Assembly: GCA_964654695.1 (NCBI GenBank)
Contig: CAZZKJ010000002.1
Coordinates: forward strand, 1,363 to 65,362
From: an uncultured bacterium
Lineage (GTDB): Bacteria > Krumholzibacteriota > Krumholzibacteriia > WVZY01
Length of the DNA stretch: 64,000 nucleotides
Direction: 5' to 3'
Positions 7,145-56,756 of this stretch are shown piece by piece (the stretch's first letter is position 1; each line of letters starts with the position of its first letter). A program made the translations under genes and the position numbers. Below the pieces are notes generated by a model. It was not told the DNA's origin, did no database searches, and was given only the letters and a program-made list of their open reading frames with translations.

Positions 7145-7561
7145 TTATTTGTAGAACTCAATATCTCTTGTGCGGTTAAAGTCCATGTAATGCAGCCCCG
7201 CAGGATTGGTAAAATTCATTCCGCCCGGATAAGCCCTGTCGTCTTCGAAGATGAACAAGTTCTTGAGAATCCTCGCCCGAGCATCTTCCACGCTGAATAT
7301 TTCACCTGATGCCGGTTGGAAATTGCCGATTTTTTCCCTGATAACGATCCGGCCTCTCAGCAGTTCTATATCAATTCGTTTTTGTAATTCCCTGTTCAAA
7401 TCGATCTGTCTGCTCAACACATCAACATCACGGTCGGTAGCTTTTCCCAGTTTAGCCCCAGCCTGCTTCGGCCGGTGCGGAATCGAAAACAGCGAAGCCC
7501 ATGAGCGTCCGGGCAATATGAGACACTCGATTATGATCAATAAAAAGAGTATTTTTTTCAT
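7145..7561 (-). CDS. Small secreted hypothetical protein (signal peptide)
   Basis: Internal start 'MKKILFLLIIIECLILPGRSWA' is a canonical signal peptide. I preferred Met14 of the ORF at 7561 over the upstream ATG at 7600. No recognisable domain. Confidence 0.4.
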   Translation of the reverse strand: MKKILFLLIIIECLILPGRSWASLFSIPHRPKQAGAKLGKATDRDVDVLSRQIDLNRELQKRIDIELLRGRIVIREKIGNFQPASGEIFSVEDARARILKNLFIFEDDRAYPGGMNFTNPAGLHYMDFNRTRDIEFYK

Positions 7562-7832
7562 AATAGCAGACTTAAAGACGATCCACGGCAACATGCTCAA
7601 TCCGTATCGGCCTATGCACTTTTAATGCCATCCGGAATCCTATTTGCCCGGGCGGCTCTTCTAACCTGCTCACTTTTCAGGCGTTTTAGTGTAAAGGCTT
7701 TGCATTATAGGAAGTTATTATGGAGATGGCGGAACAGCGCGCGGATTATTCTCCCATTTGGCGTACTTATCCTGCAAAGATGGGAACCAATGCTCAATCG
7801 CCCATCAACACTCAGCAGACGCCCACCCAAAC

Positions 7833-8976: not shown

Positions 8977-11067
8977 CTACTTGGCGATTTTCTTCAGTTC
9001 GAAAGTCAATCCCTGCGCAGGCATCTCCTGCTTGATCATTATATGAGGAAGATCCTTTGTCAGATATAAAAAAGATTCTCCCTCAGGTTGTTTTACACTT
9101 ACCTTATATACCGCGAAATCACCAGCGGTAACGGAGATTTTTTCTTCACCGGCAACCACGGCCTGGACGTTGCTCAAGCCCCCGGTGGATGTGTGAAATA
9201 CCGGGAACTTATAAGTTTTATCGACCTCCAGCGGCAGCACGGAAAGCGCGTACTCCAATTCGCCGCTAAAAATAGCTCCTTCCACCATGGCTTTATCGAC
9301 ACTCTTGGCCTCTTTAGCCTGCATGGTCTTGATATTTCCGGTTACCCTGCTGCCTTCGCAGGTCAGGCTGGCATTCATAGTGTTGGGGCCGGCCGCCATG
9401 CGGCTCTCTACCTTTATGGGCGTAAAATCGACGGCTTTGAATGAGAGCGTCTCGTTCATCGAGATCATTCCGGCAATCGAGCTGGAAACTTCGAATGCCT
9501 TTTCGCCGCTGATCTCGGTCCTCTTCAGATTCACTTGAAGATCGCCCAGGGCCATTTGAGGAACTGCGAGGCTGTACGTACACTGCATGTCCTTTAGAAC
9601 TGATGTATCGTAATCGTAATCAGCCGGCTCAACTTTCAGCTCCGCAATTGACAGGGGGCTGCCTTCCAGATCGAAAAGCTTTACCGGGAAGATATCTTTT
9701 ACCTTGTCATATATAACCGAGGCATCGCCTACAAGAACTATATTCATTTTCTCGGGATGCAGGTATTTTTTCATTGCCGAAGCGACTTCCTCAACACCGA
9801 TCTTTTCGACATGATCCCTGTATTCTTCCAGATACTTCTTGCCGCGGCCGAGAAGCTTCACTCGGACCACCTGCGAAGCTATCTGGCTCGGTGTTTCGAT
9901 GGTGGTCGGGAAATTGCCGATCAAGTATGATTTGGCATTATCCAGTTCTTCCTTGCTCACCGGCTCATTTACTATTCGCTTCAGTTCGGTCATCAATTCG
10001 ACCAGAGCGCTGTCGGTAACCTCCGTCCTGACCTCAGTGCTGGCCCTGAAATAACCCAGATCTTTACCCGCCGTGAACCTGCTGTAAGCTCCATAGGTCC
10101 AGCCTTTATCCTCCCGCAGGTTCATGAACAACCTCGCATCGGCCCCGCCGCCAAGAACCCGGTTGGCGGTCACGACCGCCGGCCAGTCCGGATTCACCGG
10201 CATCAAGCCGGTATGTCCGGCAAGAATGTTGGTCTGAACAGCCCCGGCTTTGTGATACATATAGATCTTGTTGGTCTCTACCTGGGGAGAGGCCGTGTAC
10301 TCCACAACGGAAGGTTCGCCCTGCGCCCAGGAGCCGAAATACTTCTTTAGATCCTTTCTGACCCGCTTCCATTTTACGTCTCCTACAACCGCTACCAGGG
10401 CATTATTGGCCACATAATTCTTCTTATAAAAGGCCTCTATGTCCTCTCTGGTTACCGCCTCAACGGATTCGACCGACGGATGCTTGGCGTAGGGATGGTC
10501 GCCGTAAATAATTTCGCTGAAATGCCTGCCGGCCACCGCGCTCGGCTGCGACAGCTCCAGTTCAAGAGCGGTCTTGGTGCGCTTCCTCAGTTCCTGCAGC
10601 TCGTCCTCGGGAAAAACCGGATTAAAAATAATATCCTGCAGGTACTCATAAGCGGTGCCGATGTAGTCGCTTAAAATCGATACTGAAATGGTAGTAAAAT
10701 CATCGCTTGATGACAGGTTGACCGATCCGCCTGCGGATTCGATCCACTTAGCCAGTTCGTTTGAATTCTTGTCTTTGGTTCCCTTGTTGAGGAGATTTGC
10801 GGTGAAATCGGCCAGCGATTCCTTGCCGTCGGGATCGAGCACGGACCCGGACTTGAGAACAACCGCGATTGTAACCACAGGCTGTTCGTGATGTTCGACA
10901 ACTACTACATCGACGTTATTATCGGTTTTGAATTCTTTGAATGACGGGAAGGAAAGCTTCTTTATCTTCGCCGGCTCCGGAGGATTTTCTTTTGCCTGAA
11001 GAGAGAACCCGGCAAGCAAGACAGCCCCCGCCAGCAAAAACCCGATCATTACAGCATGTTTTTTCAT
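8977..11067 (-). CDS. M16 family peptidase, non-catalytic (M16B-like) partner with ~250-aa C-terminal extension of unknown function; signal peptide
   Basis: Signal 'MKKHAVMIGFLLAGAVLLAGFSLQA'. M16 N- and C-fold regions are present ('VVVVEHHEQPVVTIAVVLKSGS', 'NALVAVVGDV'), but there is no HxxEH zinc motif. The last ~250 aa have no recognisable domain. Confidence 0.65.
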   Translation of the reverse strand: MKKHAVMIGFLLAGAVLLAGFSLQAKENPPEPAKIKKLSFPSFKEFKTDNNVDVVVVEHHEQPVVTIAVVLKSGSVLDPDGKESLADFTANLLNKGTKDKNSNELAKWIESAGGSVNLSSSDDFTTISVSILSDYIGTAYEYLQDIIFNPVFPEDELQELRKRTKTALELELSQPSAVAGRHFSEIIYGDHPYAKHPSVESVEAVTREDIEAFYKKNYVANNALVAVVGDVKWKRVRKDLKKYFGSWAQGEPSVVEYTASPQVETNKIYMYHKAGAVQTNILAGHTGLMPVNPDWPAVVTANRVLGGGADARLFMNLREDKGWTYGAYSRFTAGKDLGYFRASTEVRTEVTDSALVELMTELKRIVNEPVSKEELDNAKSYLIGNFPTTIETPSQIASQVVRVKLLGRGKKYLEEYRDHVEKIGVEEVASAMKKYLHPEKMNIVLVGDASVIYDKVKDIFPVKLFDLEGSPLSIAELKVEPADYDYDTSVLKDMQCTYSLAVPQMALGDLQVNLKRTEISGEKAFEVSSSIAGMISMNETLSFKAVDFTPIKVESRMAAGPNTMNASLTCEGSRVTGNIKTMQAKEAKSVDKAMVEGAIFSGELEYALSVLPLEVDKTYKFPVFHTSTGGLSNVQAVVAGEEKISVTAGDFAVYKVSVKQPEGESFLYLTKDLPHIMIKQEMPAQGLTFELKKIAK

Positions 11068-15654: not shown

Positions 15655-17637
15655 TCATCTGGCCTTCGATCCCGACCTGCTTGATTCCACGAGCAGAGCA
15701 AACCTCTCGCCGGATTTGCGCAGGGCTTCCAGGTCGGGATCCTTGTAGGCCCACTCGAATGCGCTGTAACCGTTCTCAAAAGCCCGAGCCAATGCGCCAA
15801 AGGCGCTTTCGAGTTCGCCATGCAGGGAATAGGTGCATGCAAGATCGTAGAAAACCTGACCGTCCGGACCCGCCAGTTCTATGATTTTGAGAAAATATTT
15901 TTCGGCTTCGGCATAGCCGCCTCTCAGGTAGCATGTATTTGCGGCTCCCAGGTAGGCGTTGGTATAATAGGGATCAAGCTTAATGGCTTTATTATATTGG
16001 GTCAGGGCCGGACCGTATTCCTTCGATTTTTCGTAAAACACTCCCAGGTTGTAATAAGCCGGTGCAAAACTGCCGGATATCGACAAAGCTCGATCGTACA
16101 TTTTGGATGCATCTTCCCTGCGCCCCTGGATATCGAGTACATTAGCAAGCTGCACGGCTGCGTTGATCGACTCGGGATTTATTTTCAGCGCTTTTTCGAA
16201 TTTCGTTCCGGCCGCTTCGTAATCCCCCAGGGAAACAAGAGCCCTGCCGTGATTCAGCAGCGCCCGCCATTCATAAGGGTCCCCCGCTTCAATTATTTCG
16301 AACTCGGATATTGCCTGTTTGATTTGATGTCTTTCCAGGAGGGCGTTGGCATAATTGCCGTGAATCATCGGCGATTCCGTATTCCGGGCAGTTTCGGCGA
16401 ACAATGTGTAATCGTCCAACCAGTCGCGTGAACGGACATTGTCCGCGGCGGCATAGCCGGCGGCGATCATCGCCGCTGCCACCAGCGCGGGCCAACGCAA
16501 CCTGCGCCGCCCGACAAAGTACGCCCCGGCACCCCCGGCAATCAGGGCAAATGCCGCACCGGGAAAGTACAGGAATCTCTCGGCGAGAATCGGATCCGAG
16601 TATGGGGGAAAAACAACGACCGGCAGCAGCGTGCCCGCCAGCAGAAGAGCGGCAAATGCAAAAAGCGGTTCAAAGTCCGTATGTGAAATGTTCTTTCCCG
16701 GCACTTTCTTGAATGTTTCTCTCCATTTTATTACCGCGCAAATTGCGAACAAAAGAATTACCGCCCCGGCTGCGGTGTCGAAGGACGGCTCGACGGCTTC
16801 CACACCGTAGTGAGCCTTCAGCGGATACGGCAGTATGAGAAGTTTCAAATAGTATAAAAGAGATGCGAGGGAGACCGTGAATCTCTCCCCTATCGATCCA
16901 AAATCCCCCCCCAGGTCGATACCGGTTATCTTAATATGAATAGCGGTATACACTGAAAGCTCTATAAAGAACAGTCCCGCCGCCAACATGCCTTTTTTCA
17001 GCCTCCCGCCGGTGGATCTGAGGAAAATGAAAGCCAGCAGCACAAACGGAAGCACCGCCGCCGTTTCCTTTGATAAAAGAGCGCCTGCATAAAAAATTAC
17101 TGATGCAGCAAGCGCGAAAAAAGACCGCAGGCCTTTGCGCGAGAGGCCCTCAAATACGGCGGCCAGAGACGCAAGCGCGAACACCAGGCACAGCACATCG
17201 GTCCGTCCCGAAATCCAGGCCACGGATTCGACATGGACGGGATGAAGCGAGAAAACCAATGCCGACACAAGAGCGGCTGAAAACCGCCCGGTCAGCTGCA
17301 TGCAGACAACTGCAAGCAGGAGCGCGGCCAGCGCATGCAGGAGCAAATTGGTCGCGTGGAACCCCGCTGCATTAAGACCGTAGATTCGGTGATCGATGGC
17401 GAAACTGCTCCTTATCAGCGGTCTGTAAAATTCCGAAAAACGGGAAGGATCATCGAAAGTAACCCAGAAGTCCGAACCGAACACTCCGCCTATTATTTTA
17501 CCGGAAAGTACCTGGGTGTTTTTTTCCACCAGATCGTGATCGTCCCAGACGAAAGATCCGGACAGGCCCGGATAATACGCGCAAGCGACGGCAACGATGA
17601 TGATAGTACTGAGAACAAGCCAATAAAAGGGTTTCAT
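15655..17637 (-). CDS. TMTC-like protein O-mannosyltransferase: N-terminal multi-TM GT-C/DUF1736 domain fused to C-terminal TPR repeats
   Basis: 'YYPGLSGSFVWDDHDLV' is the conserved first-loop motif of TMTC/DUF1736 proteins. About 10 TM helices. The C-terminal ~270 aa contain about 7 TPR repeats ('YNLGVFYEKSKEYGPALTQYNKAIKLDP...'). Confidence 0.65.
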   Translation of the reverse strand: MKPFYWLVLSTIIIVAVACAYYPGLSGSFVWDDHDLVEKNTQVLSGKIIGGVFGSDFWVTFDDPSRFSEFYRPLIRSSFAIDHRIYGLNAAGFHATNLLLHALAALLLAVVCMQLTGRFSAALVSALVFSLHPVHVESVAWISGRTDVLCLVFALASLAAVFEGLSRKGLRSFFALAASVIFYAGALLSKETAAVLPFVLLAFIFLRSTGGRLKKGMLAAGLFFIELSVYTAIHIKITGIDLGGDFGSIGERFTVSLASLLYYLKLLILPYPLKAHYGVEAVEPSFDTAAGAVILLFAICAVIKWRETFKKVPGKNISHTDFEPLFAFAALLLAGTLLPVVVFPPYSDPILAERFLYFPGAAFALIAGGAGAYFVGRRRLRWPALVAAAMIAAGYAAADNVRSRDWLDDYTLFAETARNTESPMIHGNYANALLERHQIKQAISEFEIIEAGDPYEWRALLNHGRALVSLGDYEAAGTKFEKALKINPESINAAVQLANVLDIQGRREDASKMYDRALSISGSFAPAYYNLGVFYEKSKEYGPALTQYNKAIKLDPYYTNAYLGAANTCYLRGGYAEAEKYFLKIIELAGPDGQVFYDLACTYSLHGELESAFGALARAFENGYSAFEWAYKDPDLEALRKSGERFALLVESSRSGSKAR

Positions 17638-17743
17638 AGCAGCGCCAAACCTGTTGAGACCTCCGGGCGGAAAGCCATTCGCCGGGAATTAAACCTTGAT
17701 CTTACAGCGGGAAAGCCTTCCCTGCAATACACCATAATAATAA

Positions 17744-17783
17744 CCCCGACCGGCAACGGGATTCCGATGTGTACCGGTCGGGG
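17744..17783 (-). terminator. Candidate intrinsic terminator of the 4-haem cytochrome gene: 10-bp GC-rich inverted repeat (ccccgaccgg / ccggtcgggg) with a T/A-rich tail on the minus strand
   Basis: Perfect 10-bp inverted repeat at 17744-17753 and 17774-17783, 35-64 bp downstream of the 17818 stop. The minus-strand reading is followed by 'TTATTATTAT'. The loop is long (20 nt), which lowers confidence. Confidence 0.4.
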
Positions 17784-17817
17784 GTGCTTCGCCGCAGGCT
17801 CTCTCCTGAGCGACGAA

Positions 17818-18489
17818 TTATTTAATATGGCAAACCAGGCAAAGAGAGCTTGCCCCGACGCCCGTTCCCGCAGCGCCTTTCGTCTTAACGCGAAGCAAGT
17901 GGGTTCCCGATACCGATTCCAAATCATGCACATCATGGCAGGTTGAACACTGAACCTTGTTATTGTCCAGGACATCCTCGATTGTTCCCGAGGTGCCCAT
18001 GGTCGTTGTAACTGGGTTAAGACCCGCATCCGCCGTATTATAAGTAATAGAGATCGGATGCGTTCTGTTCAGATCTGCGTTGATCTTGTAGCCGGCATCA
18101 TAATCATCGATAAGCACCGTTCCGGCCGAATTGCCGTCGAAGTTATCGATGGCCACAGTTCCGTCATGGCAGCTGAGGCAGAGTTTGGAAACACCGCTGG
18201 GCTGGGTATCCTGCGTTCCATCCAGGGGAGGCATAATGGTAGAGTACATGGTGAATGTCTGGGTGGTAACGTTATGGTTCCAGAGCAATCCATTGTCCCC
18301 TAGCGTCCTTCCATGGTCATGAGGAACATGGCAAACGCGGCAAATCTCGACGCGTTTAGTATTCCAACCTTCAGCGCTAAAATCATGAGGGCTTCCAACA
18401 ATGCCGGATCCGCTGCCGCTGGCAAAAGCTGTCGCTCCGAAGAAGGAAACGAGAGCCAACGAAACAACTAGAAGCTTTAATGCTTTCAT
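17818..18489 (-). CDS. Tetrahaem c-type cytochrome (doubled-CXXCH family), secreted
   Basis: Four CxxCH motifs ('CRVCHVPH', 'CLSCHDG', 'CSTCHDVH', 'CLVCHIK'). Signal peptide 'MKALKLLVVSLALVSFFGATAFA'. Start placed at ATG 18489, because the 60-aa upstream extension in the ORF track contains the sigma-54 promoter. The 'SPHDFS...CxxCHxPH' motif is characteristic of the Geobacter-type paired CXXCH family. Confidence 0.75.
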   Translation of the reverse strand: MKALKLLVVSLALVSFFGATAFASGSGSGIVGSPHDFSAEGWNTKRVEICRVCHVPHDHGRTLGDNGLLWNHNVTTQTFTMYSTIMPPLDGTQDTQPSGVSKLCLSCHDGTVAIDNFDGNSAGTVLIDDYDAGYKINADLNRTHPISITYNTADAGLNPVTTTMGTSGTIEDVLDNNKVQCSTCHDVHDLESVSGTHLLRVKTKGAAGTGVGASSLCLVCHIK

Positions 18490-18614
18490 ATGGTCATGGT
18501 TGTCGTCGAAACAAAACAGATACCGTGAAGGTATCGGCAATGGTCCGCAGCAACGCTGTTTCGACTTCAACACTTCACCTCCTTCCCGCGGACTGATTTG
18601 TGTCCGCACTAAAT

Positions 18615-18630
18615 GGCAAGAGAGGTGCCA
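18615..18630 (-). promoter_or_regulatory. Sigma-54 (RpoN) promoter, minus strand: TGGCAC-ctctc-TTGCC (perfect -24 GG / -12 GC consensus) upstream of the tetrahaem cytochrome gene
   Basis: Plus strand reads GGCAAgagagGTGCCA at 18615-18630; its reverse complement is TGGCACctctcTTGCC. It lies 126 bp upstream of the ATG at 18489 and directly downstream of the sigma-54 activator gene. Confidence 0.65.
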
Positions 18631-18807
18631 CGTATTAAGCATATTTAAGTGTCTGCACAACCTGTTCATATTTTAAGAGTTTAGGGGGTATACGCCATTG
18701 ATAGGGAGAAAAGGGCAAAACGGAACATAGCGTTATATGGCGATATTTTGTGTGATATAACTAAGAGCAATTATTTCCGAAGTCAAACCGGAGGAAGAAA
18801 CAGGAGG

Positions 18808-20184
18808 TCAGTCTTCTTTGAGCAAATTGAATTTCTTCATTCTGTATCGCAAGGCATCGCGGCCGATACCAAGAACGCCGGCAGCCCGCGTTTGATTCCA
18901 CGATGTCCGGTCCAGGGCCTGGACGATGAGCTGCTTTTCAACATCCTCTATGGAAATGCCTTCGGGAGGAAGGCTGAAGGATCCTTTGCCGTTTCCGCGT
19001 TTAATCTTGGGCCCGGTATCAAGAGGAAAATCTTCCTTATCGATCACATCTTTTTCGCATAGAAGGACGGCCCTTTCCACCACGTTTCTCAATTCCCTCA
19101 CATTGCCCGGCCAGTGATAATCGCTTATGACCTTTTCGGTTTCAGCGGTGAAACTCTTTATTTTCTTTCCGCACGACCTGCTGGTTTTTTCCAAAAAATG
19201 CCTGGCTATAAGGATCTCATCGCCTTTGCGTTCCCGCAGCGGCGGGATAAAGACCGGTATCACGTTCAAACGGTAGTACAGATCTTCCCTGAACGATCCC
19301 TCTTCGACGAGATATTTGAGATCCTTGTTGGTAGCCGCCACTATCCTGACATCGACATCGACGTCCGCTATACCGCCGACCCTGCGGAATTTTTTTTCTT
19401 CGAGTATATGGAGCAGGTTAACCTGCGCGCTGGGCAGCAAATCCCCGATCTCGTTAAGAAAAACCGTTCCTCCATCGGCAAGTTCTATAAGCCCTTTCTT
19501 TGTGGTCTTGGCATCTGTAAAGGCGCCCTTTTCATGGCCGAACAGCTCGCTTTCGAACAGGTTATCTATTAGCGAAGGACTGTTTATCGCCATGAAAGGG
19601 TGGCTGCATCGAGGACTTTCGTAATGAATCACCTGCGCGATTAGATCTTTGCCCGATCCGCTCTCACCCTGAAGAAAAACCGTTGACAGGTTGTTTCTGG
19701 CAACTTTTGAGGCGAGCTTCTTGACTTCTTTCATCGCCTTCGACTCGCCGATTATGCTGTCTAATGAAAACGCTTTTTTCTGCCTGGCTACGAAACTCGA
19801 TTCTTTGAGCTTCAATCTCGAGGTTTCCAGCGCTTTTTCGATAACAATCTTGAATTCATCAATAATAAAAGGTTTATTCACATAATCGTATGCTCCCAGG
19901 CGCATCGCTTCCACCGCCGTGCCGACATCCGCATAAGCGGTCAGCATAACCACAGGCAAATCGGGATAGTATGCCTTGAGCTTGGCCAGTGTTTCCAAAC
20001 CCGACATCCCGGGAAGCTTGAGATCCAATACCACCAGGTCGGGCAGTTCTTTTTTAATGGAATCAATAGCTTCGCTGCCGCTGCTGGCTTCATCGGTACG
20101 GTATCCCAGTTTGGCCAATCCGCGGACCAGGCTCCAGCGAACGAGCTTTTCGTCATCTACTATAAGCACAAAGCTTTTTCTCAT
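18808..20184 (-). CDS. Sigma-54-dependent response regulator (NtrC/AtoC family: REC + AAA+ sigma-54 activator + Fis-type HTH)
   Basis: REC domain with phospho-acceptor in 'LVVLDLKLPGMSG'. Walker A 'GESGSGKDLIAQ', GAFTGA-like 'HEKGAFTDA', arginine finger region 'REDLYYRLNV'. C-terminal HTH 'RTSWNQTRAAGVLGIGRDALRYRMKKFN'. Confidence 0.85.
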   Translation of the reverse strand: MRKSFVLIVDDEKLVRWSLVRGLAKLGYRTDEASSGSEAIDSIKKELPDLVVLDLKLPGMSGLETLAKLKAYYPDLPVVMLTAYADVGTAVEAMRLGAYDYVNKPFIIDEFKIVIEKALETSRLKLKESSFVARQKKAFSLDSIIGESKAMKEVKKLASKVARNNLSTVFLQGESGSGKDLIAQVIHYESPRCSHPFMAINSPSLIDNLFESELFGHEKGAFTDAKTTKKGLIELADGGTVFLNEIGDLLPSAQVNLLHILEEKKFRRVGGIADVDVDVRIVAATNKDLKYLVEEGSFREDLYYRLNVIPVFIPPLRERKGDEILIARHFLEKTSRSCGKKIKSFTAETEKVISDYHWPGNVRELRNVVERAVLLCEKDVIDKEDFPLDTGPKIKRGNGKGSFSLPPEGISIEDVEKQLIVQALDRTSWNQTRAAGVLGIGRDALRYRMKKFNLLKED

Positions 20185-20639
20185 AATTGTTGAACAGCCC
20201 CCAAATGCTCTGAGACAGAGTTTTATCGATTCCTCTAGCGATCATAAAACCATGTGTACTCTCAGGAGGAAAAACAGCCTCTCATGCGGTTTTTATATCG
20301 GGATAAAAGTTTCCGTCAACGATAATATATCGGATCGAACCCTATGCGCCTTTAATTATACTATTTTATGTCCTTATTATCACTATTAAAATCGTATCCT
20401 GAAAGGTTCAAAATCTTGTGGAAATGTTCCCTCGGGAGGGAGCTCTGATTCTGTCATTTCACTCAGTTCTGCGTCCTATGGCTCATCTCCCGGACTGAAA
20501 AACCGTTTCTGCCTTGGAAAAAACAAGCGGGGACGGTTTCATAGAATAATACCATAAAATACATACATTCAATACCTTAAAATGCTCATTGAAGTTTCGC
20601 GGTTGCTCGCAATCAGGTAATACCGGGGTTTCGGAGTCA

Positions 20640-20655
20640 AGGTACACAAGTTGCA
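20640..20655 (+). promoter_or_regulatory. Sigma-54 promoter, plus strand: aGGTAC-acaag-TTGCA (-24 GG / -12 GC, 2 mismatches to TGGCAC-N5-TTGCA) upstream of the NHL/cytochrome/barrel operon
   Basis: GG at 20641-20642 and GC at 20653-20654 with correct 10-nt spacing, 181 bp upstream of the ATG at 20836. It sits in a 650-bp AT-rich divergent intergenic region next to the sigma-54 activator gene. Confidence 0.55.
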
Positions 20656-20835
20656 CATAAAAACGAAGCGCAACCAGACGGGATTCCAAAGCGCCGCTGA
20701 TATTTCGTTCTCAGCCCTCTTCTGGAAGGTTCAAAACCGATTTTGCCGGTTACGGCGAACCGCTGGGATATCCCGTCCGGCACGCATTATCTAACCGTGT
20801 GGATCGACCAGAAAGTATCATAAAAGGTGTGACCA

Positions 20836-21951
20836 ATGAATTACCAGAATAATCCCGGAGTACGTCGGCTCATTGTCATTTCAACGGCATTATCGGCACT
20901 GTTGGCCGCCGCAGCGCTCATGACCAGCTGCTCGACGGCTCGTATGAGCAAAGATTCGATAGAGGTATTCTACCCGCCCCCACCGGAAGAACCCAAAATA
21001 CAGTTCTTGCAATCATTCAATTCATCAGCCGATATCGAAGACAAGCAATCATGGTTCGCAAAAACCGTTGTCGGCTCCAAGCAGCTTCAAAAAGGCCTTG
21101 GCAAACCTTACGGCATCACAATCGACAGGGGCAAAATCTATATCTGCGACACTTTGATCGGATCGATCGTCGTGATTGATCTGGACAAAAAGACCTTCGA
21201 ACTTTTCCCCGATAAGGGCAGAGGCAAATTGATCAAACCGATACACATTACAATCGACAGCGATGGGTTCAAATATGTATCGGACATCGGCAGAGGACAG
21301 ATTGTGGTTTTTGACGATCAAAACAAATATATAAAAACGATCGGCACCAAGAATGAATTACTCCCAGCCGACGCGGCGGTCTGGGGAGATACTTTGTTTA
21401 TAGCGGACACAAAGGATAATGAAGCCGAAGCAAGGAATAAACGCACCGGCGAACTGCTGTTCAAGTTCGGCAGAGGCGGCAATGAAAAAGGTGAGTTTCT
21501 TAAACCAACGAATATATCTCTAGACTCCGATGGGAACCTATACATAACGGATACAATTAATTTCCGCGTGCAGAAATTCGACCGGAGGGGAAATCTGCTG
21601 ACCGTTTTTGGCAAGGCCGGCGACGGTATCGGAGCTTTCACGCGTCCAAAAGGAACCGCGCTCGATAAAATGGATAACCTGTATGTTGTCGACAGCGCCT
21701 TCGAAAATGTTCAAATTTTTGACCAAACCGGGGATGTGCTGATGTTTTTTGGTGGAGCCGGAGCGGATCCGGGATCGATGTATCTGCCTGCAGATATATA
21801 TATAGATTACGACAATATTGAATATTTCCAAAAGCATGCGGCCGATGATTTTGAAATCGAATATTTGATTTTCGTAACCAACCAGTACGGTTCAATGAAG
21901 ATCAACGTATATGGTTTCGGCCATTCCAAGAACGGGAGCGGAGGATCTTGA
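20836..21951 (+). CDS. NHL-repeat six-bladed beta-propeller lipoprotein
   Basis: Lipoprotein signal with lipobox 'LMTSC'. Repeated NHL units ('KPYGITIDRGKIYICDT', 'KPIHITIDSDGFKYVSD', 'KPTNISLDSDGNLYITDTINFRVQKFD', 'RPKGTALDKMDNLYVVDSAFENVQIFD'). Confidence 0.75.
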   Translation: MNYQNNPGVRRLIVISTALSALLAAAALMTSCSTARMSKDSIEVFYPPPPEEPKIQFLQSFNSSADIEDKQSWFAKTVVGSKQLQKGLGKPYGITIDRGKIYICDTLIGSIVVIDLDKKTFELFPDKGRGKLIKPIHITIDSDGFKYVSDIGRGQIVVFDDQNKYIKTIGTKNELLPADAAVWGDTLFIADTKDNEAEARNKRTGELLFKFGRGGNEKGEFLKPTNISLDSDGNLYITDTINFRVQKFDRRGNLLTVFGKAGDGIGAFTRPKGTALDKMDNLYVVDSAFENVQIFDQTGDVLMFFGGAGADPGSMYLPADIYIDYDNIEYFQKHAADDFEIEYLIFVTNQYGSMKINVYGFGHSKNGSGGS

Positions 21952-22760
21952 TTAGAAAAAAGGCATCGAACAGATTTTTTGCGGCTCTGTGGAAACTCAC
22001 ATCCGAAGTATCTGTATATCCGCCGGGATCTCTCGCGATCCGCCGGCGGCGGGAATACACGCCTGCGGCCCTCTGGATATTGTGCTGTCTTATCGGATGG
22101 GCTACGGCGAACTGCTCTTCACAAACCAGGTATAATGTGCTGAGCACAGTATTCGACGGGGTTCCGCCACCCATAAGTGCAGTCTCTGATTATGCGGACA
22201 GCTTGTCAGTCAGGGCATCCAGGGATTGGGAGCTGGAACAAATCACGACCTACGCCCATGGGCCGTTCGCTGCAAAAGAATGCGGGGCTTGTCACAACCT
22301 GCCTGAAACAAAAAGTTTTAGAAACGGCATGAATAAGAGTTATGCCGTTCCGTCTTATTCCAGCAGCGCGAATAAAATGGGGAGGCTTCTCCGGCCGGAA
22401 GAAGAACTTTGTTCATACTGCCATTATGAAAAATCCGCCGACAATCCCGATAATAATGACAAGTTTCTTCACGGACCCGTGGCGGCCGGAGAATGCATCG
22501 TCTGCCATCATCCACATCAGTCGCCCAGACCGTTCATGCTTCTAAAATCTCCGGATTGGGAGCTCTGCTCGTCCTGCCATGGAGACGAAAATGAAAAGAG
22601 TTTCAAGCACATGAACGCCGATGCCGGCAGCGGATCTGCCGGCACGGCGAATAATAAATGCATCGAATGCCACGATCCTCATTCGAGCAGCAGGCAGTAT
22701 ATGTTGAAGAAAAGCGCCGATATTACTAAATCCTCCGCGACCGGCGAAAGCAGCATTTGA
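21948..22760 (+). CDS. Pentahaem c-type cytochrome (c3/c7-like, doubled-CXXCH type)
   Basis: Five CxxCH motifs ('CGACHNL', 'CSYCHYE', 'CIVCHHPH', 'CSSCHGD', 'CIECHDPH'). TTG start at 21948 is preceded by GGAGG and overlaps the upstream stop (TTGA). N-terminal hydrophobic segment 'ILCCLIGWATANCSS'. Confidence 0.75.
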   Translation: MIRKKASNRFFAALWKLTSEVSVYPPGSLAIRRRREYTPAALWILCCLIGWATANCSSQTRYNVLSTVFDGVPPPISAVSDYADSLSVRASRDWELEQITTYAHGPFAAKECGACHNLPETKSFRNGMNKSYAVPSYSSSANKMGRLLRPEEELCSYCHYEKSADNPDNNDKFLHGPVAAGECIVCHHPHQSPRPFMLLKSPDWELCSSCHGDENEKSFKHMNADAGSGSAGTANNKCIECHDPHSSSRQYMLKKSADITKSSATGESSI

Positions 22761-24772
22761 GAATCAGCAGCTCGAGGCTTACAATGCCCCCTGCAAGAAA
22801 AGAAAAAACAAATAATAAAACCGGCTGCACCCGTTTGCACCGGACCGCAGCGCTTGCATTCATCGCTTTGGTTTTGACGGCCCTTTTCCCCCGGTATTCA
22901 CAGGCCCAGGAAGTGAGACTCTTCAAGATTACTGCATATGAAGGTTACCTGGGCTTCGGCTATGAGTATCAGCGGGAAATGTGGGATAAATCCCAGCGCT
23001 TTCAGAACCTGCTCGCAAAGAATCACAGGTTCACGGAAGAACCTTCTCTTGATGTTTGGAGTTATTTTTATCATCCAAACGTTGCAAAAATCAAAACTTC
23101 TTTGACATGGACGCAGCGCCAGGAATTTCTGTCCAATGAATCGGCTCCCAACTACAACACCGGCATTGCCATAAAGGATTTTAGCGCGGATGCGGAGCTT
23201 TTCAAACGCCTTCCGGTCAATTTCCAGCTTTTCGCATCGCGGATCACTACCACCATCGACAATACTTACTGGTCTAAACGCGATCTTATTACCAGGAGAC
23301 TGGGAGCAAGAATAAATCTAAGGTCCCTTCTTCTTCCCGCCTCGCTCCAATCAAGCACCACCGAACAGGAAGGATTTGGTTTCTATTATTACCGGGAGAA
23401 ACGCAAAGATCTTCGGCTTGACATTTCCAACAACAATAAGTTCATACGCACCACGTTAAGCGGCGAAACCGCCGATATCTGGAGATCCGAACAAAACGTT
23501 AACAGTAAAATCGACCAGGCGGAGATTCAAAACATTTTCAATCCAAACAATATGGGAAGGGCTCAACTCGTATCCAACGTCCATTATTACCGGCAGAGAA
23601 ACGGCTACAACACGAAAAATTTCAGCGTCTTGGAAAACCTCAACATGCACTTGACATCGCGCCTGTCAATGCAGCTGTCTTATTCCAATTCTTCAGGAAC
23701 TTCACAGAATTTGAGCAACAAGACCGAAGTATTTCAGGGTATACTGTCACACAGGTTATACGAAAGCCTTCTCAGCTCGCTGGAGTTCTTCAGGACGTCC
23801 TTCGGTTTCGACCGCGGGAAACAAACGGACAGGGGAGGGAGGGTAGGTATTTCCTATCATAAATTCGTGCCTTTCGGCAAAATAGAAGCAGGGTACACGG
23901 CGCGATATCAGGAAGAATGGCAGGACTTCGAAGAAGATCTCGCCGCAATAATAAAGGAATCGCACCAGTTTATTCCTGGGGTTCCGCTGTTTCTCGACAG
24001 GCAGTTGATTAAACCCGAAACCATTGAGATACGCGACGAAACCGGCATTATTCTATACGAAGAAGGCATCGACTATATCATCAGGGCTTTTAGCAGTTAC
24101 ACTGAGATTATCATTCTTCCCGCCGGAAATATTCCGCGCGACGCGTTTTTGCAGGTAAGTTACCAGTTCCAGGTGGACCCCGCGCTGTCGTTCAAAACCT
24201 TGTCCGCTCAGTGGAATACATCAATCAATGTTAAAAATAAACTCATCATCAGCTACAAGCAAAGCGCCGACGATCAGACTCTGCTCGGCGGAATCGACGC
24301 CGGGAACCTCCAGGATATCAATCAAAACACGCTCACGGTTCAGACAATTATTAAAGGCTCCACAACGACCATGGAGTACCAGAAATACGGGGCCGATATA
24401 AATCCATTCAATGCCAGGAGGATAAATGAATATTTCTTCCATAATTTTTCCAGCAAAACCCAGATGAACCTTCAGGCAGATTACACAGTCATTGATTTTA
24501 CCGGAACGCCTGTCACCGCTACTTTATGGGACGTTATTCTTGGTTTCAAAAGCAGGCTCTCGCGGTCTATGAAACTCAACTTTCGCTCTTATTACCGGGA
24601 GCACCGCGGCCAGGGCGATACCAGCGTGATCTATGGATTGGAGAACGAACTCAGATACAGGTTCCGGATGGTTGAACTCTTTGCTTCGGGCGCGTTCGAA
24701 TACGGCCGGATCGAAGGATTTGAAAAGAGAAATAGAATATTTTTAAAAACCCAATTGAGAAGATATTTTTGA
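22757..24772 (+). CDS. Large outer-membrane beta-barrel protein (porin-like, ~670 aa; candidate porin of a porin-cytochrome conduit)
   Basis: N-terminal signal-like 'AALAFIALVLTALFPRYSQAQE'. Amphipathic beta-strand periodicity runs throughout, rich in Y/F/N/S/T/Q. C-terminal residue is Phe ('LRRYF'), the classical OMP barrel sorting signature. No enzymatic motifs. Start overlaps the upstream stop by 4 bp. Confidence 0.55.
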   Translation: MRISSSRLTMPPARKEKTNNKTGCTRLHRTAALAFIALVLTALFPRYSQAQEVRLFKITAYEGYLGFGYEYQREMWDKSQRFQNLLAKNHRFTEEPSLDVWSYFYHPNVAKIKTSLTWTQRQEFLSNESAPNYNTGIAIKDFSADAELFKRLPVNFQLFASRITTTIDNTYWSKRDLITRRLGARINLRSLLLPASLQSSTTEQEGFGFYYYREKRKDLRLDISNNNKFIRTTLSGETADIWRSEQNVNSKIDQAEIQNIFNPNNMGRAQLVSNVHYYRQRNGYNTKNFSVLENLNMHLTSRLSMQLSYSNSSGTSQNLSNKTEVFQGILSHRLYESLLSSLEFFRTSFGFDRGKQTDRGGRVGISYHKFVPFGKIEAGYTARYQEEWQDFEEDLAAIIKESHQFIPGVPLFLDRQLIKPETIEIRDETGIILYEEGIDYIIRAFSSYTEIIILPAGNIPRDAFLQVSYQFQVDPALSFKTLSAQWNTSINVKNKLIISYKQSADDQTLLGGIDAGNLQDINQNTLTVQTIIKGSTTTMEYQKYGADINPFNARRINEYFFHNFSSKTQMNLQADYTVIDFTGTPVTATLWDVILGFKSRLSRSMKLNFRSYYREHRGQGDTSVIYGLENELRYRFRMVELFASGAFEYGRIEGFEKRNRIFLKTQLRRYF

Positions 24773-25809
24773 GGCTTATGAAATCATTTATGAACAACAA
24801 AACCGTAATAGCAGCAGTCCTGATCGCATGCACGGCCGCGTTCTCATGTTCAAGGAAAGCCGCCTCACCCAAGAAAACGCGGATCTCCTGGCCGGCCGAT
24901 CCCGAAAGGGCCCGCGTGCGTTTCGTGACAGGCTTTTTTGCGCAGGAGGGATTAGAGCACGAACCGGGTTTCTTCGGCAGCCTGCGAAGGTTCATCACGG
25001 GCGGCAAATCTCCTTCCCTGCAGCAGCCTTACGGTCTGGAAACCGCGGACGACGGCAGCCTCTATGTAGTGGATACCGGGCTCAGGAAAATTATTATCTT
25101 TTCAAAGGAGGGACGCAAACTCGGCGAACTTTCTGCAGACCACCGCCTCTTATCGCCGATAGATATAGCTATCACCGGCGGCAGGATATTCGTTACCGAT
25201 TCCGCAAGGAAAAAAGTCTTCATCATCGACAAAAAAGGCAAAATCATCGGATCTATCGGCGAAGGCATTTTCGAACGGCCGACAGGGATCGCTGCATCAG
25301 CGGATGGACGTTATTTGTATACCGTCGATACCGCCGGGCACTGCATTTTCAGAACCAGCCCGGACGGAAAAGCTCTGAAGCGAATCGGCAAAAGAGGCTC
25401 GGCCCCGGGGGAATTCAATTATCCGACAAACATAACCGTGTCCGCAGACGGCCGAATCATAGTAACCGATTCAATGAATTTCCGCATACAAATCATGGAT
25501 GCCGGGGGCGCCCCACTGGCATCAATAGGAACCGCCGGCGACGGGCCGGGGACCTTTTCAAAGCCGAGGGGCGTGGCGGTCGACAGTGAAGGGCATATTT
25601 ATGTAGTAGACGCGATGTTCGATAACGTTCAAGTGTTCTCGCTCGATGGGACGCTGCTCCTGGCTTTCGGCTCGTCGGGTTACGGCCCGGGCCGTTTTTA
25701 TCTTCCCAGCGGAATATTTATAGATTCCAACGACAGGATATTCATCGCAGACACTTTCAACCGGGCCGTCCAGGTATTCGATTACATGCCGGAAGGGAAT
25801 GCCGATTGA
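24769..25809 (+). CDS. NHL-repeat six-bladed beta-propeller lipoprotein (second copy)
   Basis: Lipobox 'AAFSC'. NHL repeats ('QPYGLETADDGSLYVVDTGLRKIIIFS', 'SPIDIAITGGRIFVTDSARKKVFIID', 'YPTNITVSADGRIIVTDSMNFRIQIMD', 'KPRGVAVDSEGHIYVVDAMFDNVQVFS', 'LPSGIFIDSNDRIFIADTFNRAVQVFD'). Start overlaps the upstream stop. Confidence 0.75.
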   Translation: MRLMKSFMNNKTVIAAVLIACTAAFSCSRKAASPKKTRISWPADPERARVRFVTGFFAQEGLEHEPGFFGSLRRFITGGKSPSLQQPYGLETADDGSLYVVDTGLRKIIIFSKEGRKLGELSADHRLLSPIDIAITGGRIFVTDSARKKVFIIDKKGKIIGSIGEGIFERPTGIAASADGRYLYTVDTAGHCIFRTSPDGKALKRIGKRGSAPGEFNYPTNITVSADGRIIVTDSMNFRIQIMDAGGAPLASIGTAGDGPGTFSKPRGVAVDSEGHIYVVDAMFDNVQVFSLDGTLLLAFGSSGYGPGRFYLPSGIFIDSNDRIFIADTFNRAVQVFDYMPEGNAD

Positions 25810-27602
25810 TGCCGCGCGGGAACCGCTGCATAAAGGGCGTACGTATCTTTTTTAGGCGTTCGAAAAATCGCCGCAGTACTCCCGGAAAAGTTACTGGGGC
25901 CTTATTTACCGGGGCTTTCCTGGCCGCCTTCGCGGCTTCTACCTGCGCAACTTTGGAAATCAGAGCGCAGTCCGGTGTAATCGTATCGACCAAGCATAAT
26001 TTATCAATAAGCGGACCTGGATCGGTAAAAGCCGTGGACGAGACCAGGATTTGTATCTTCTGTCACACCCCCCACAGGGCAAGCAGCAGCGGCCCGCTGT
26101 GGAACAAGATGGATTCGCAGGCCGGCTACCTGCCCTATCAAAGCACGAGCATGCACGTTCTTCCCGGCCAGCCCGCCGGCAGCTCGAAACTCTGTTTGAG
26201 CTGCCATGACGGCACAATCGCCCTGGGACTCCTGGTTAGCGAACAGGCCCAACTGGGTATGACCTTCCAGTTCCCTACCGGCAGGAGCCTGCTGGGCACG
26301 GATCTAAGAGACGATCATCCGGTCAGTTTTTTATACGATGCCGGACTTGCCGCCGCGAATCCGGAACTGATAGACCCCGTGGGAAATCCCGACGTGCATC
26401 TTGATATGAACCAGCAGATGCAGTGCAATTCCTGTCACGATGCCCATAACAATATTCACGGACATTTCCTGCGAGAATCCAATACTCGGTCCGCGCTGTG
26501 CAGGCGGTGTCATGTTAAGAATGGATGGAACACCTGCAGCCACGCGGTTTCAACGAAATCCTGGAACGGCGCCGCTCCGGATCCATGGCCCTATACCGGC
26601 GAGCAGACCGTAGCCGACAACGCATGTGCCAACTGCCATTCCCCGCATCTTGCCGGCGAACCGGAGAGGCTTCTCTATAATGCGATCGAAGAACAGAACT
26701 GTTTCAAGTGCCATAACGGGCACGCTGCATCTAAGAACGTCGAAGCGGATTTTGCCAAGATATCCTACCATCCCGTAGACATGTATCAATCGGTCCACCA
26801 GCCCGGCGAAGATCCCGCGGCCATGAATAAGCATGTCGAATGCCTCGACTGCCATAACCCCCATGTCGCGAACGCGCTCGGCAACGAACAACCCCCGGCA
26901 AACCGCAGCCAGACCAAAGGTGTATCCGGGGTTACGAATTCAAATAATTTTACGGCCGAAGCGGTTTACCAGTATGAAATATGCTTCAAATGCCACGCCG
27001 GACAGCACTCCGCTTCCGCGAAAGTGCCTCGGGTCATCGCCCAGACCGATACCAGGTTCGAATTCGATCCCGGCAATCCTTCATACCACCCGGTCGAAGC
27101 CGCCGGCAGAAACCAGGATTGCCCCAGTCTCAAGTCGCCTTACACGACATCGAGCATCATCTATTGTACGGACTGCCATTCGAGCGATACCGGAACCGGC
27201 GCCGGAGGCCAGGGCGCAAGCGGCCCGCACGGTTCCGCATGGGAGCCGATCCTGGAAAGACGTTTCGAACTTTCCAACGGCCTCAGGGAAAACGCGGATA
27301 TATACGCCTTGTGTTACAAGTGCCATGATCGTCAGAATATTTTGGACAACCGGAGCTTCAAGGAACACAAGAAGCATATAGACGGAGAAAAAGCATCGTG
27401 CGCTACCTGCCATGATCCCCATGGTATAAGCTCGACCCAGGGAAATACCTCCAATAACACGCACCTGATAAACTTCAACACACTCGAAGTCACACCGAGC
27501 AAATCCGGAAAGCTGGAATTCATCGACGACGGTTATCGCCGCGGCAGGTGTTACCTGACATGCCACAGGAAAAACCACGATCCCAAAGACTATAAACCGT
27601 AG
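25806..27602 (+). CDS. Large multihaem c-type cytochrome, 11 canonical CxxCH plus one CX3CH motif
   Basis: CxxCH at CIFCH, CLSCH, CNSCH, CRRCH, CANCH, CFKCH, CLDCH, CFKCH, CTDCH, CYKCH and CATCH, plus C-terminal 'CYLTCH'. N-terminal signal-like 'ALFTGAFLAAFAASTCA'. The first ~200 aa are paralogous to the tetrahaem cytochrome at 17818-18489 (shared 'SKLCLSCHDGT'). Confidence 0.8.
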   Translation: MMPRGNRCIKGVRIFFRRSKNRRSTPGKVTGALFTGAFLAAFAASTCATLEIRAQSGVIVSTKHNLSISGPGSVKAVDETRICIFCHTPHRASSSGPLWNKMDSQAGYLPYQSTSMHVLPGQPAGSSKLCLSCHDGTIALGLLVSEQAQLGMTFQFPTGRSLLGTDLRDDHPVSFLYDAGLAAANPELIDPVGNPDVHLDMNQQMQCNSCHDAHNNIHGHFLRESNTRSALCRRCHVKNGWNTCSHAVSTKSWNGAAPDPWPYTGEQTVADNACANCHSPHLAGEPERLLYNAIEEQNCFKCHNGHAASKNVEADFAKISYHPVDMYQSVHQPGEDPAAMNKHVECLDCHNPHVANALGNEQPPANRSQTKGVSGVTNSNNFTAEAVYQYEICFKCHAGQHSASAKVPRVIAQTDTRFEFDPGNPSYHPVEAAGRNQDCPSLKSPYTTSSIIYCTDCHSSDTGTGAGGQGASGPHGSAWEPILERRFELSNGLRENADIYALCYKCHDRQNILDNRSFKEHKKHIDGEKASCATCHDPHGISSTQGNTSNNTHLINFNTLEVTPSKSGKLEFIDDGYRRGRCYLTCHRKNHDPKDYKP

Positions 27603-56362: not shown

Positions 56363-56756
56363 TCCACAGCCGGCGCTTTGACATGGGATATCGGTTGCTG
56401 CATCCATTTGAGCTAAAACCCGGATTGCACATACGCAGCTTTTATTGTATTCTCTAACCGTTCAAAAAACAGCAGGAGCCCCACACAAAACGAATTGAAC
56501 ACATCATTCTTAGAGAGTCCTCTCATGAACAAAGCTTGTTTCAGCAGGCGTCCCGCAAAAACGGAATATTTCGATTATAATGTCAGGCTTTTTCAGGGAT
56601 TTGATGAAAATATTCTTGGAAGCAAAGGCCGGGCCAGTGGACATTTTTTCACAGTCCGATCCATACTCCATATAATCGCCGGGCATGCCGCCCACCATTT
56701 AGATTTCTTGAGCAAAAACTACCTGCTTTAGTGCGCCTAGAGCAAATTTGTTATAA

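Follow-up and report, generated by a model that had tools for sequence, protein, structure and literature searches.

RESULTS

Genes and candidate promoters at the locus

We analyzed a 64,000-nt stretch of DNA from an uncultured bacterium of the Krumholzibacteriota (contig CAZZKJ010000002.1). This whole stretch is called the window below, and all coordinates are positions in it. A gene for an NtrC-type activator, that is, a bacterial enhancer-binding protein, lies there between a tetrahaem cytochrome gene on the same strand and a five-gene operon on the opposite strand that encodes NHL-repeat lipoproteins, cytochromes, and a probable outer-membrane barrel. A candidate sigma-54 promoter precedes the cytochrome gene and another precedes the operon, and the two face outward from the regulator gene. 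The features concerned are the following.

18808-20184, minus strand: NtrC-family response-regulator activator, 458 aa (Response_reg + Sigma54_activat + AAA_lid_14 + HTH_8)
18615-18630, minus strand: site 1, very probable sigma-54 -24/-12 promoter of the tetrahaem cytochrome gene, P(cyt), TGGCACCTCTCTTGCC; predicted start near 18604
17818-18489, minus strand: tetrahaem c-type cytochrome, 223 aa, with a signal peptide and four CXXCH motifs
20640-20655, plus strand: site 2, probable atypical sigma-54 -24/-12 promoter of the NHL/cytochrome/barrel operon, P(NHL), AGGTACACAAGTTGCA; predicted start near 20666
20836-27602, plus strand: five-gene NHL/cytochrome/barrel operon with four 4-nt start/stop overlaps

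Conservation was assessed by comparison with the only independent close relative of the regulator, P0002 (79% identical), which is encoded at the loci L081 (NCBI GCA_964464035.1), L082, and L153. The last of these does not count as a second independent relative, since its sequence at the positions compared here is that of L081. A locus with a 73% identical regulator (L083) was set aside: its contig spans just 2.4 kb, has another gene downstream, and lacks a sigma-54 site. A search of genome contigs with the regulator gave, among the matches listed, only paralogue-level ones of at most 51% identity. Four-fold degenerate sites in three flanking genes show an identity of 0.40 between the window and L081; unconstrained DNA is thus essentially randomised between the two.

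The very probable cytochrome promoter

Site 1 is the reverse complement of positions 18615 to 18630. It is intergenic, lies on the same strand as the cytochrome gene downstream of it, and is followed after 126 nt by the ATG of that gene (18489), a spacing within the usual ~30 to 300 nt. Its layout is TGGCAC-CTCTC-TTGCC, with the GG and GC dinucleotides 10 nt apart, and the sole departure from the consensus (TGGCAC-N5-TTGCW) is the last base, C in place of A or T. The initial annotation had called the element perfect; its sequence, coordinates, and distance to the ATG all hold, while the adjective is slightly generous. For the exact core TGGCAC-N5-TTGC, the window contains one match versus 0.09 expected. 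A comparison with the background by means of an RpoN position weight matrix (PWM), which the same annotation had proposed as a check, came out in favor of this site. It ranked 2nd of ~128,000 window positions with a literature-style PWM, which follows the published sigma-54 consensus, and 5th with a data-driven PWM, compiled solely from 16 sigma-54-like sites of independent loci among the relatives.

The counterpart of site 1 in L081 is AGGCACCGCATTTGCC, in which GGCACC-N4-TTGCC is kept and three spacer bases as well as both flanks differ; the whole regulator-cytochrome intergenic alignment of the two loci has 319 columns at 50% identity. We then turned to 67 metagenome loci encoding relatives of the tetrahaem cytochrome at 26 to 56% identity, which gave 54 upstream regions after removal of redundancy. 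A site with a PWM score of at least 12 was present on the sense strand in 17 of these 54 regions, 39 to 311 nt before the start codon (for example, TGGCACGCGGGTTGCT, TGGCATAACATTTGCT, and TGGCACTGTCCTTGCA), and on the antisense strand in none (0/54), while 1.7% of equally long random windows drawn from these loci contained such a site (Fisher 1.6e-14). Across 563 kb of related loci, about half of all sites with a score of 13 or more immediately precede a tetrahaem cytochrome gene. Because of the rarity of the core, its conservation in L081, and the family-wide enrichment of such sites upstream of the cytochrome gene, site 1 is very probably a real sigma-54 promoter, and the enrichment suggests that sigma-54 control is, very probably, a family trait of this gene.

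The cytochrome start at 18489 is backed by the signal peptide and by the start of the orthologue. A longer frame from 18669, which would swallow site 1, was ruled out, since the signal peptide begins at 18489 and upstream indels in L081 break the frame.

The probable promoter of the NHL operon

Site 2 lies 181 nt from the ATG of the first operon gene at 20836. The GG/GC frame and TTGCA are present, with A at -26 and T at -23. The case for this site comes chiefly from its surroundings. Over the 651 nt that separate the regulator and NHL genes, identity to L081 is 40%, which is the neutral level, and site 2 falls wholly inside the longest exact run of the region, 22 nt long (GAGTCAAGGTACACAAGTTGCA, 20634-20655), a run expected ~1e-6 times in the region at neutral identity. 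No other sigma-54-like site of the 651 nt comes close to it (score 8.07; the next one, 0.46), and it offers their sole plausible GG-N10-GC. As estimated from the PWM rank, a given conserved block of 22 to 64 nt would hold a site scoring this high in the correct orientation with a probability of ~0.2 to 2%. The two promoters also share a layout, in which a conserved -24/-12 element is followed by 9 to 14 diverged bases (-11 to ~+1) and then by a conserved segment of ~30 nt. A plus-strand scan of positions 20400 to 20835 revealed no sigma-70-type promoter upstream of the NHL gene, and an Rfam search of positions 17500 to 21500 gave no match. Since it sits inside a perfectly conserved 22-nt run in a region at neutral divergence, site 2 is probably functional, and we lean, with less assurance than for site 1, toward reading it as a real sigma-54 promoter of atypical sequence.

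The regulator

The 458-aa protein comprises a receiver domain (PF00072, E 1e-29), a sigma-54 interaction AAA+ domain (PF00158, E 7e-63) with a GAFTDA loop, and a C-terminal Fis-type helix-turn-helix domain (PF02954, E 5.5e-17), the composition given to it in the initial annotation. The closest solved structure is that of Aquifex NtrC1 (4l4u/1ny5, E 1e-105). Equivalents of DD10-11, D54, T82, and K104 of the receiver are visible in the alignment with NtrC1, and the receiver residues, Walker A, the arginine-finger region, sensor II, and the helix-turn-helix are all intact. The annotation had regarded the GAFTDA loop as unusual. It turned out to be an ordinary and common natural variant, found in 114 of the 120 best hits and, among the nearest 150 representatives clustered at 50%, in 61, versus 56 with GAFTGA; it is listed among the variants expected to keep an activator transcription-competent, and it is also the loop of DVU2106, a regulator to which sigma-54 target operons have been assigned (PMC4641369).

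The ATP site is less conventional. The Walker B motif reads VFLNE versus LFLDE in NtrC1, with N244 aligned to the Walker B Asp, and departs from the canonical hhhhDE; the Walker A motif, GESGSGKD, has D180 after the lysine where Glu is usual. The Walker B Asn is common to P0001-3 and P0018, the members of the clade linked to the cytochrome cluster, and occurs in 10 of the 149 nearest representatives, together with various loop variants. An Asp follows the Walker A lysine in all ten of these proteins (10/10) versus 25 of the 139 with the canonical Walker B Asp (Fisher 1.7e-7, a value that ignores phylogeny). The Walker B Asn and the Walker A Asp are possibly a compensating pair in the ATP site, and an Asn that is recurrent, paired, and conserved looks like a tolerated state rather than decay.

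As the annotation had also stated, there is no histidine kinase gene nearby: a Pfam scan of the 49 long open reading frames (ORFs; at least 150 aa) over the 64 kb detected no HisKA or HATPase_c domain.

Gene order and the regulator in related loci

The gene arrangement of the window and its operon order recur in L081 and L082, and the operon order alone recurs in many metagenome loci. Most relatives have one co-directional cluster composed of the tetrahaem gene, sometimes a small cytochrome gene, and then NHL, cytochrome, barrel, NHL, and large cytochrome genes; such a tetrahaem-led cluster on a single strand was seen in L085, L090, L093, L096, L100, L101, and others. A split cluster with the regulator between its halves was found in the window, in L081, and at the P0018 locus. 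With the tetrahaem gene reversed and the regulator placed between the halves of the cluster, the NHL operon therefore needs a promoter of its own.

The linkage of the regulator clade to such clusters is repeated. L090 (regulator 50% identical), L106, and L135 each combine a regulator gene, a sigma-54 site, and a cytochrome cluster. L090 has two strong sigma-54 sites in series after the regulator gene (7798-7813 and 9811-9826, plus strand), one upstream of genes for a receiver-only protein and a small cytochrome and the other upstream of the tetrahaem-led cluster, and further strong sites at 1191 (minus strand) and 1495 (plus strand). The gene for P0018 (54% identical) lies directly after a gene for a 493-aa HAMP-HisKA-HATPase kinase, between it and the cytochrome genes, and is divergent from an NHL-cytochrome-barrel-NHL-cytochrome series. 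A 54% identical homologue in Geobacter pickeringii (P0013) likewise follows a 493-aa kinase gene, and the sole strong sigma-54 site in 15 kb of that locus, TGGCACCGATATTGCT, is 82 nt upstream of the adjacent NHL/multihaem genes. A 493-aa HAMP-HisKA-HATPase kinase gene immediately upstream of the gene for a 54% identical relative of the regulator was recorded both at the P0018 locus and at L152 (5431-6912).

In L081, as in the window, no kinase gene is located beside the regulator gene. Because the more distant relatives have one there, the kinase-less state of the window looks derived; the kinase gene was probably relocated or deleted from the locus, and the regulator probably has its cognate kinase encoded at another place.

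Other elements of the intergenic regions

Alignment with L081 and scans for consensus sequences yielded six further features.

18732-18755, minus strand: candidate enhancer (upstream activating sequence) of the cytochrome promoter, TCACACAAAATATCGCCATATAAC; center ~139 nt upstream of the predicted start; footprint conserved in L081
20459-20482, plus strand: candidate enhancer (upstream activating sequence) of the NHL operon promoter, TCACTCAGTTCTGCGTCCTATGGC; center ~196 nt upstream of the predicted start; footprint conserved in L081
20355-20383, minus strand: sigma-70-type promoter of the regulator gene, GTGATA-17-TATAAT, 10/12 matches; overlaps a 14-nt exact conserved run, TAATTATACTATTT
18573-18600, minus strand: conserved start of the predicted cytochrome leader, 28 nt, CAAATCAGTCCGCGGGAAGGAGGTGAAG, from the L081 alignment
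20666-20697, plus strand: conserved start of the predicted NHL-operon leader, 32 nt, AAGCGCAACCAGACGGGATTCCAAAGCGCCGC; contains a 20-nt exact run versus L081
17742-17763, minus strand: terminator-like hairpin after the cytochrome gene, from a consensus scan only; the count of such sites is not above that in shuffled sequences

The two upstream footprints, when each is read toward its own target, align without gaps as TCACWCA-N5-KCGYCMTATRRC. The alignment scored 31 of 48 matches summed over both genomes, a score reached by 3 of 5,000 column shuffles, and the shared 24-nt element is a candidate binding site of the regulator. Distances of ~139 and ~196 nt are in the usual range for enhancer sites. 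No further copies of the element were detected in the window with up to three mismatches, and IHF-like sites were present only with a mismatch.

The sigma-70-type promoter of the regulator gene is ~170 nt upstream of the regulator ATG. As the candidate enhancer at 20459-20482 is ~80 nt upstream of that promoter, autoregulation of the regulator gene is possible. This conserved promoter was outside the initial annotation, as were the Walker B Asn and the fact that the tetrahaem gene leads the NHL/barrel operon in most relatives.

Given the terminator-like hairpin 3' of the cytochrome gene, the minus-strand unit, which had been annotated as a cytochrome operon, is probably a one-gene transcript. 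The conserved leader starts (18573-18600, minus strand, and 20666-20697, plus strand) are unrelated to each other in sequence. The former folds no better than shuffled sequences (z -1.3); the same holds for the NHL-operon leader (z -1.8), whose predicted pairing is not kept in L081. Another terminator-like hairpin with a T-run, GATACCTTCACGGTATC TGTTTTGTTT, sits in the cytochrome leader ~30 nt before the ATG (18519-18535, minus strand); it was rejected, being absent from L081 and of a type whose hits are not above shuffles.

Elsewhere in the window, TGGCATTAAAAGTGCA (7615-7630, minus strand) is intergenic and ranks 3rd to 4th with the two PWMs. An in-frame ATG follows 54 nt downstream, at 7561, and opens a signal peptide (MKKILFLLIII...) within an ORF without a Pfam match (7145-7600); the site may be a third sigma-54 promoter of the window. 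The best-scoring sigma-54-like site of all, TGGCCCGGCCTTTGCT (56621-56636, minus strand), is also intergenic; it is oriented toward the 3' end of the gene at 54602-56362, antisense to that gene, and has no convincing ORF downstream. A weaker sigma-54-like site at 56384 (plus strand) occupies the same gap.

The encoded electron-transfer proteins

The 223-aa tetrahaem protein matches chain 9yuq_N of the Protein Data Bank (E 4.7e-12), a 218-aa cytochrome present in 16 chains, and gave no match to the OmcE nanowire structure 7TFS at E up to 1. It shares 34% identity with the operon's 598-aa cytochrome over the OmcE-like N-terminal part of the latter and is, judging from these similarities, related to cytochromes of the OmcE kind. 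The operon encodes, in order, an NHL lipoprotein of 371 aa, a 5-haem cytochrome of 270 aa, a 671-aa protein, an NHL lipoprotein of 346 aa, and the 598-aa cytochrome (25806-27602, plus strand). The last has 11 CXXCH motifs and one CX3-4CH, and its first ~190 residues match 7TFS (E 5e-26). Both it and the tetrahaem protein may be cytochromes of the filament type. The 671-aa protein has no Pfam match and ends in RRYF; it is probably an outer-membrane barrel.

Two observations bear on the origin of the window. The best named matches of a 739-aa peptidase encoded in it (63 to 68% identity) are in Latescibacteria, Krumholzibacteria, and KSB1, and another protein matches the type IX secretion sorting domain, although weakly and below the cutoff; each of these results fits an origin in the FCB group.

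DISCUSSION

A model of regulation and its alternatives

The locus is likely to be a sigma-54 regulatory module for a gene set of the extracellular-electron-transfer type, and there is good reason to think that the adjacent regulator is the activator of both promoters. According to the model that we propose, the regulator gene (18808-20184) would be transcribed from its own sigma-70-type promoter (20383-20355), and its NtrC1-like product, once a kinase encoded outside the locus has phosphorylated its receiver Asp, would assemble on the conserved 24-nt element upstream of each target. The AAA+ domain, hydrolyzing ATP in spite of its Walker B Asn, and the GAFTDA loop would then open the closed complexes of sigma-54-RNA polymerase. 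At P(cyt) (18630-18615, minus strand), this would yield a one-gene transcript for the OmcE-related tetrahaem cytochrome, and at P(NHL) (20640-20655, plus strand), a transcript of the NHL, 5-haem, barrel, NHL, and 11/12-haem genes. The general notion of one activator with two divergent targets had been put forward in the initial annotation, and it gains some support here because the upstream element is shared by both targets.

A number of observations weigh against this model. The coordinates and the 181-nt distance to the ATG that had been reported for site 2 stand, but its description as near-consensus does not: by sequence alone, the site is no better than chance. The T at -23 occurs in none of the 16 related-locus sites (0/16), the site is one of 27 two-mismatch matches to the consensus versus 28 expected, its relaxed core GGYAY-N5-TTGCW occurs once versus 0.79 times expected, and the PWM scan, favorable to site 1, placed it 13th (literature-style) and 37th (data-driven). 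Moreover, the 22-nt block is conserved throughout, spacer included, with the -24/-12 bases not singled out, and the NHL genes of most relatives follow the tetrahaem gene and have no promoter of their own. It could thus be that only the cytochrome promoter is sigma-54 dependent, that the block at 20634-20697 is an operator for some other regulator, a promoter for another sigma factor, or the place where a small RNA or a conserved leader begins, and that the GG-N10-GC is coincidental. We regard this as a serious but clearly less probable explanation. A correct-strand site of this quality would rarely fall within a conserved block of 22 to 64 nt; the scan of 20400-20835, the Rfam search, and the folding analysis gave no plus-strand sigma-70-type promoter, no match, and no conserved fold, respectively; and the layout of site 2 mirrors that of site 1, at an operon that needed a new promoter after the rearrangement of gene order. 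Conservation at both sites comes from a single independent relative, L082 and L153 being identical to L081 there. That both matches are due to chance, in an organism that makes no use of sigma-54 at these genes, is very improbable. It is true that two-mismatch consensus matches are as frequent as in shuffled sequence and that no sigma-54 domain (rpoN) was found in the 49 long ORFs of the 64-kb window, but the rarity of the site 1 core, the enrichment upstream of tetrahaem genes (17/54 versus 0/54), the conservation in L081 at a neutral identity of 0.40, the site in G. pickeringii, and the intact sigma-54 interaction domain encoded between the two sites all argue otherwise.

The role assigned to the regulator also has to be weighed. 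In PspF, the D107A substitution abolishes ~99% of the ATPase activity, the Vmax being 0.23 versus 39.5 per minute (PMC3419264), and in the alignment with NtrC1, FLNEI of the regulator stands opposite FLDEI. Since the Walker B Asp is replaced with Asn in the regulator and its loss is so costly in PspF, ATPase activity cannot be assumed. The promoters could be of the sigma-54 type and the adjacent regulator, hydrolyzing little or no ATP, could act as a brake, join another activator in a mixed ring, or sit on the DNA as a repressor; the HrpR/HrpS pair, for instance, tolerates catalytic-site mutations in one partner (PMC3105312), and no kinase gene accompanies the regulator in the window. We find such a role unlikely, as the Asn is conserved in every cluster-linked member of the clade and, in the 10 of 149 representatives that have it, is always paired with the Walker A Asp, the other catalytic motifs are all intact, and the locus contains no second activator gene. 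As for the shared upstream element, the footprints were picked by eye before the alignment was tested, and the element was not found in more distant loci. Finally, no terminator was detected by the consensus scan between the regulator gene and P(cyt), so read-through from the regulator gene could contribute to cytochrome expression.

The model with the adjacent regulator as a sigma-54 activator of both promoters thus remains the one that we prefer. A more far-reaching reading of the same protein places it in a small recurrent class of the NtrC family with a rebuilt ATP site, dedicated in this lineage to OmcE/uet-like electron-transfer clusters and representing a new mechanistic variant of sigma-54 activation. 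We consider it doubtful. Were the rebuilt site to alter the binding or hydrolysis of ATP, through slow turnover, a metal-independent step, or a non-hydrolyzing ring partner, it would represent such a variant and not sequence drift. The pairing of the Walker B Asn with GK-D is the single feature of the locus that merits biochemical attention.

Comparison with known systems

The electron-transfer genes themselves have counterparts elsewhere. In comparison with OmcE (7TFS; PMC12954529), the N terminus of the 598-aa protein is alike, while the 223-aa protein matches only the related 9yuq_N. The undecahaem electron transfer (uet) cluster of "Ca. Tenderia electrophaga" (10.1101/2022.05.06.490989; PMC10734462) resembles the window in composition only. 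The two have in common a tetrahaem cytochrome, an outer-membrane barrel (a probable one in the window), two NHL-repeat proteins, and an 11-haem cytochrome, the counts of haem motifs in the window being 4, 5, and 11(+1), its NHL proteins two lipoproteins, and its 671-aa protein one with a C-terminal Phe. The trihaem, cupredoxin, and prolyl-isomerase genes of uet are absent from the window, and a search through the text of the uet paper gave no mention of a sigma factor or a regulator.

The regulatory part can be compared with NtrB/NtrC at glnAp2 and with Aquifex NtrC1 (1NY5, 4L4U), with which it shares the order of domains and the location of upstream sites (candidate ones in the window) 100 to 200 nt from a -24/-12 promoter. 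The window differs from these systems in having no adjacent kinase gene, GAFTDA instead of GAFTGA, the Walker B Asn, and GK-D in Walker A, as well as in having two divergent probable targets served from sites that flank the regulator gene. DVU2106 of Desulfovibrio vulgaris is likewise a GAFTDA activator with assigned sigma-54-dependent operons on both sides of its gene, but it is a single-component protein rather than a response regulator and controls cell-division genes (PMC4641369).

In Geobacter, electron-transfer cytochromes are already known to be under sigma-54 control (PMC2725144). The closest parallel there is BccR (GSU0598) of Geobacter sulfurreducens, which is required for induction of the sigma-54-dependent cbcBA operon (10.1101/2021.04.15.440034). 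In both cases, a regulator composed of a receiver, a sigma-54 AAA+ domain, and a helix-turn-helix is encoded divergently from a cytochrome operon for extracellular electron transfer that is sigma-54 dependent (probably so in the window). The targets of BccR are inner-membrane b/c cytochromes, however, and the cluster of the window is predicted to be of the outer-membrane type. Orthology of the regulator with BccR was set aside on Geobacter gene context alone, since P0013, the closest relative of the regulator in Geobacter, is encoded beside a kinase gene and NHL/multihaem genes and has no cbcBA-type genes next to it.

The arrangement described here is thus ordinary and well-known sigma-54/activator logic, applied to a uet-like, OmcE-related cytochrome cluster, and with the regulatory logic already familiar, the gain is one of annotation and not of concept. 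What it provides is a concrete model of how an outer-membrane cytochrome cluster may be regulated in an uncultured lineage of the FCB group. Probable sigma-54 promoters precede the tetrahaem cytochrome gene in about one-third of its non-redundant relatives from environmental metagenomes, which helps to predict when such electron-transfer genes switch on.

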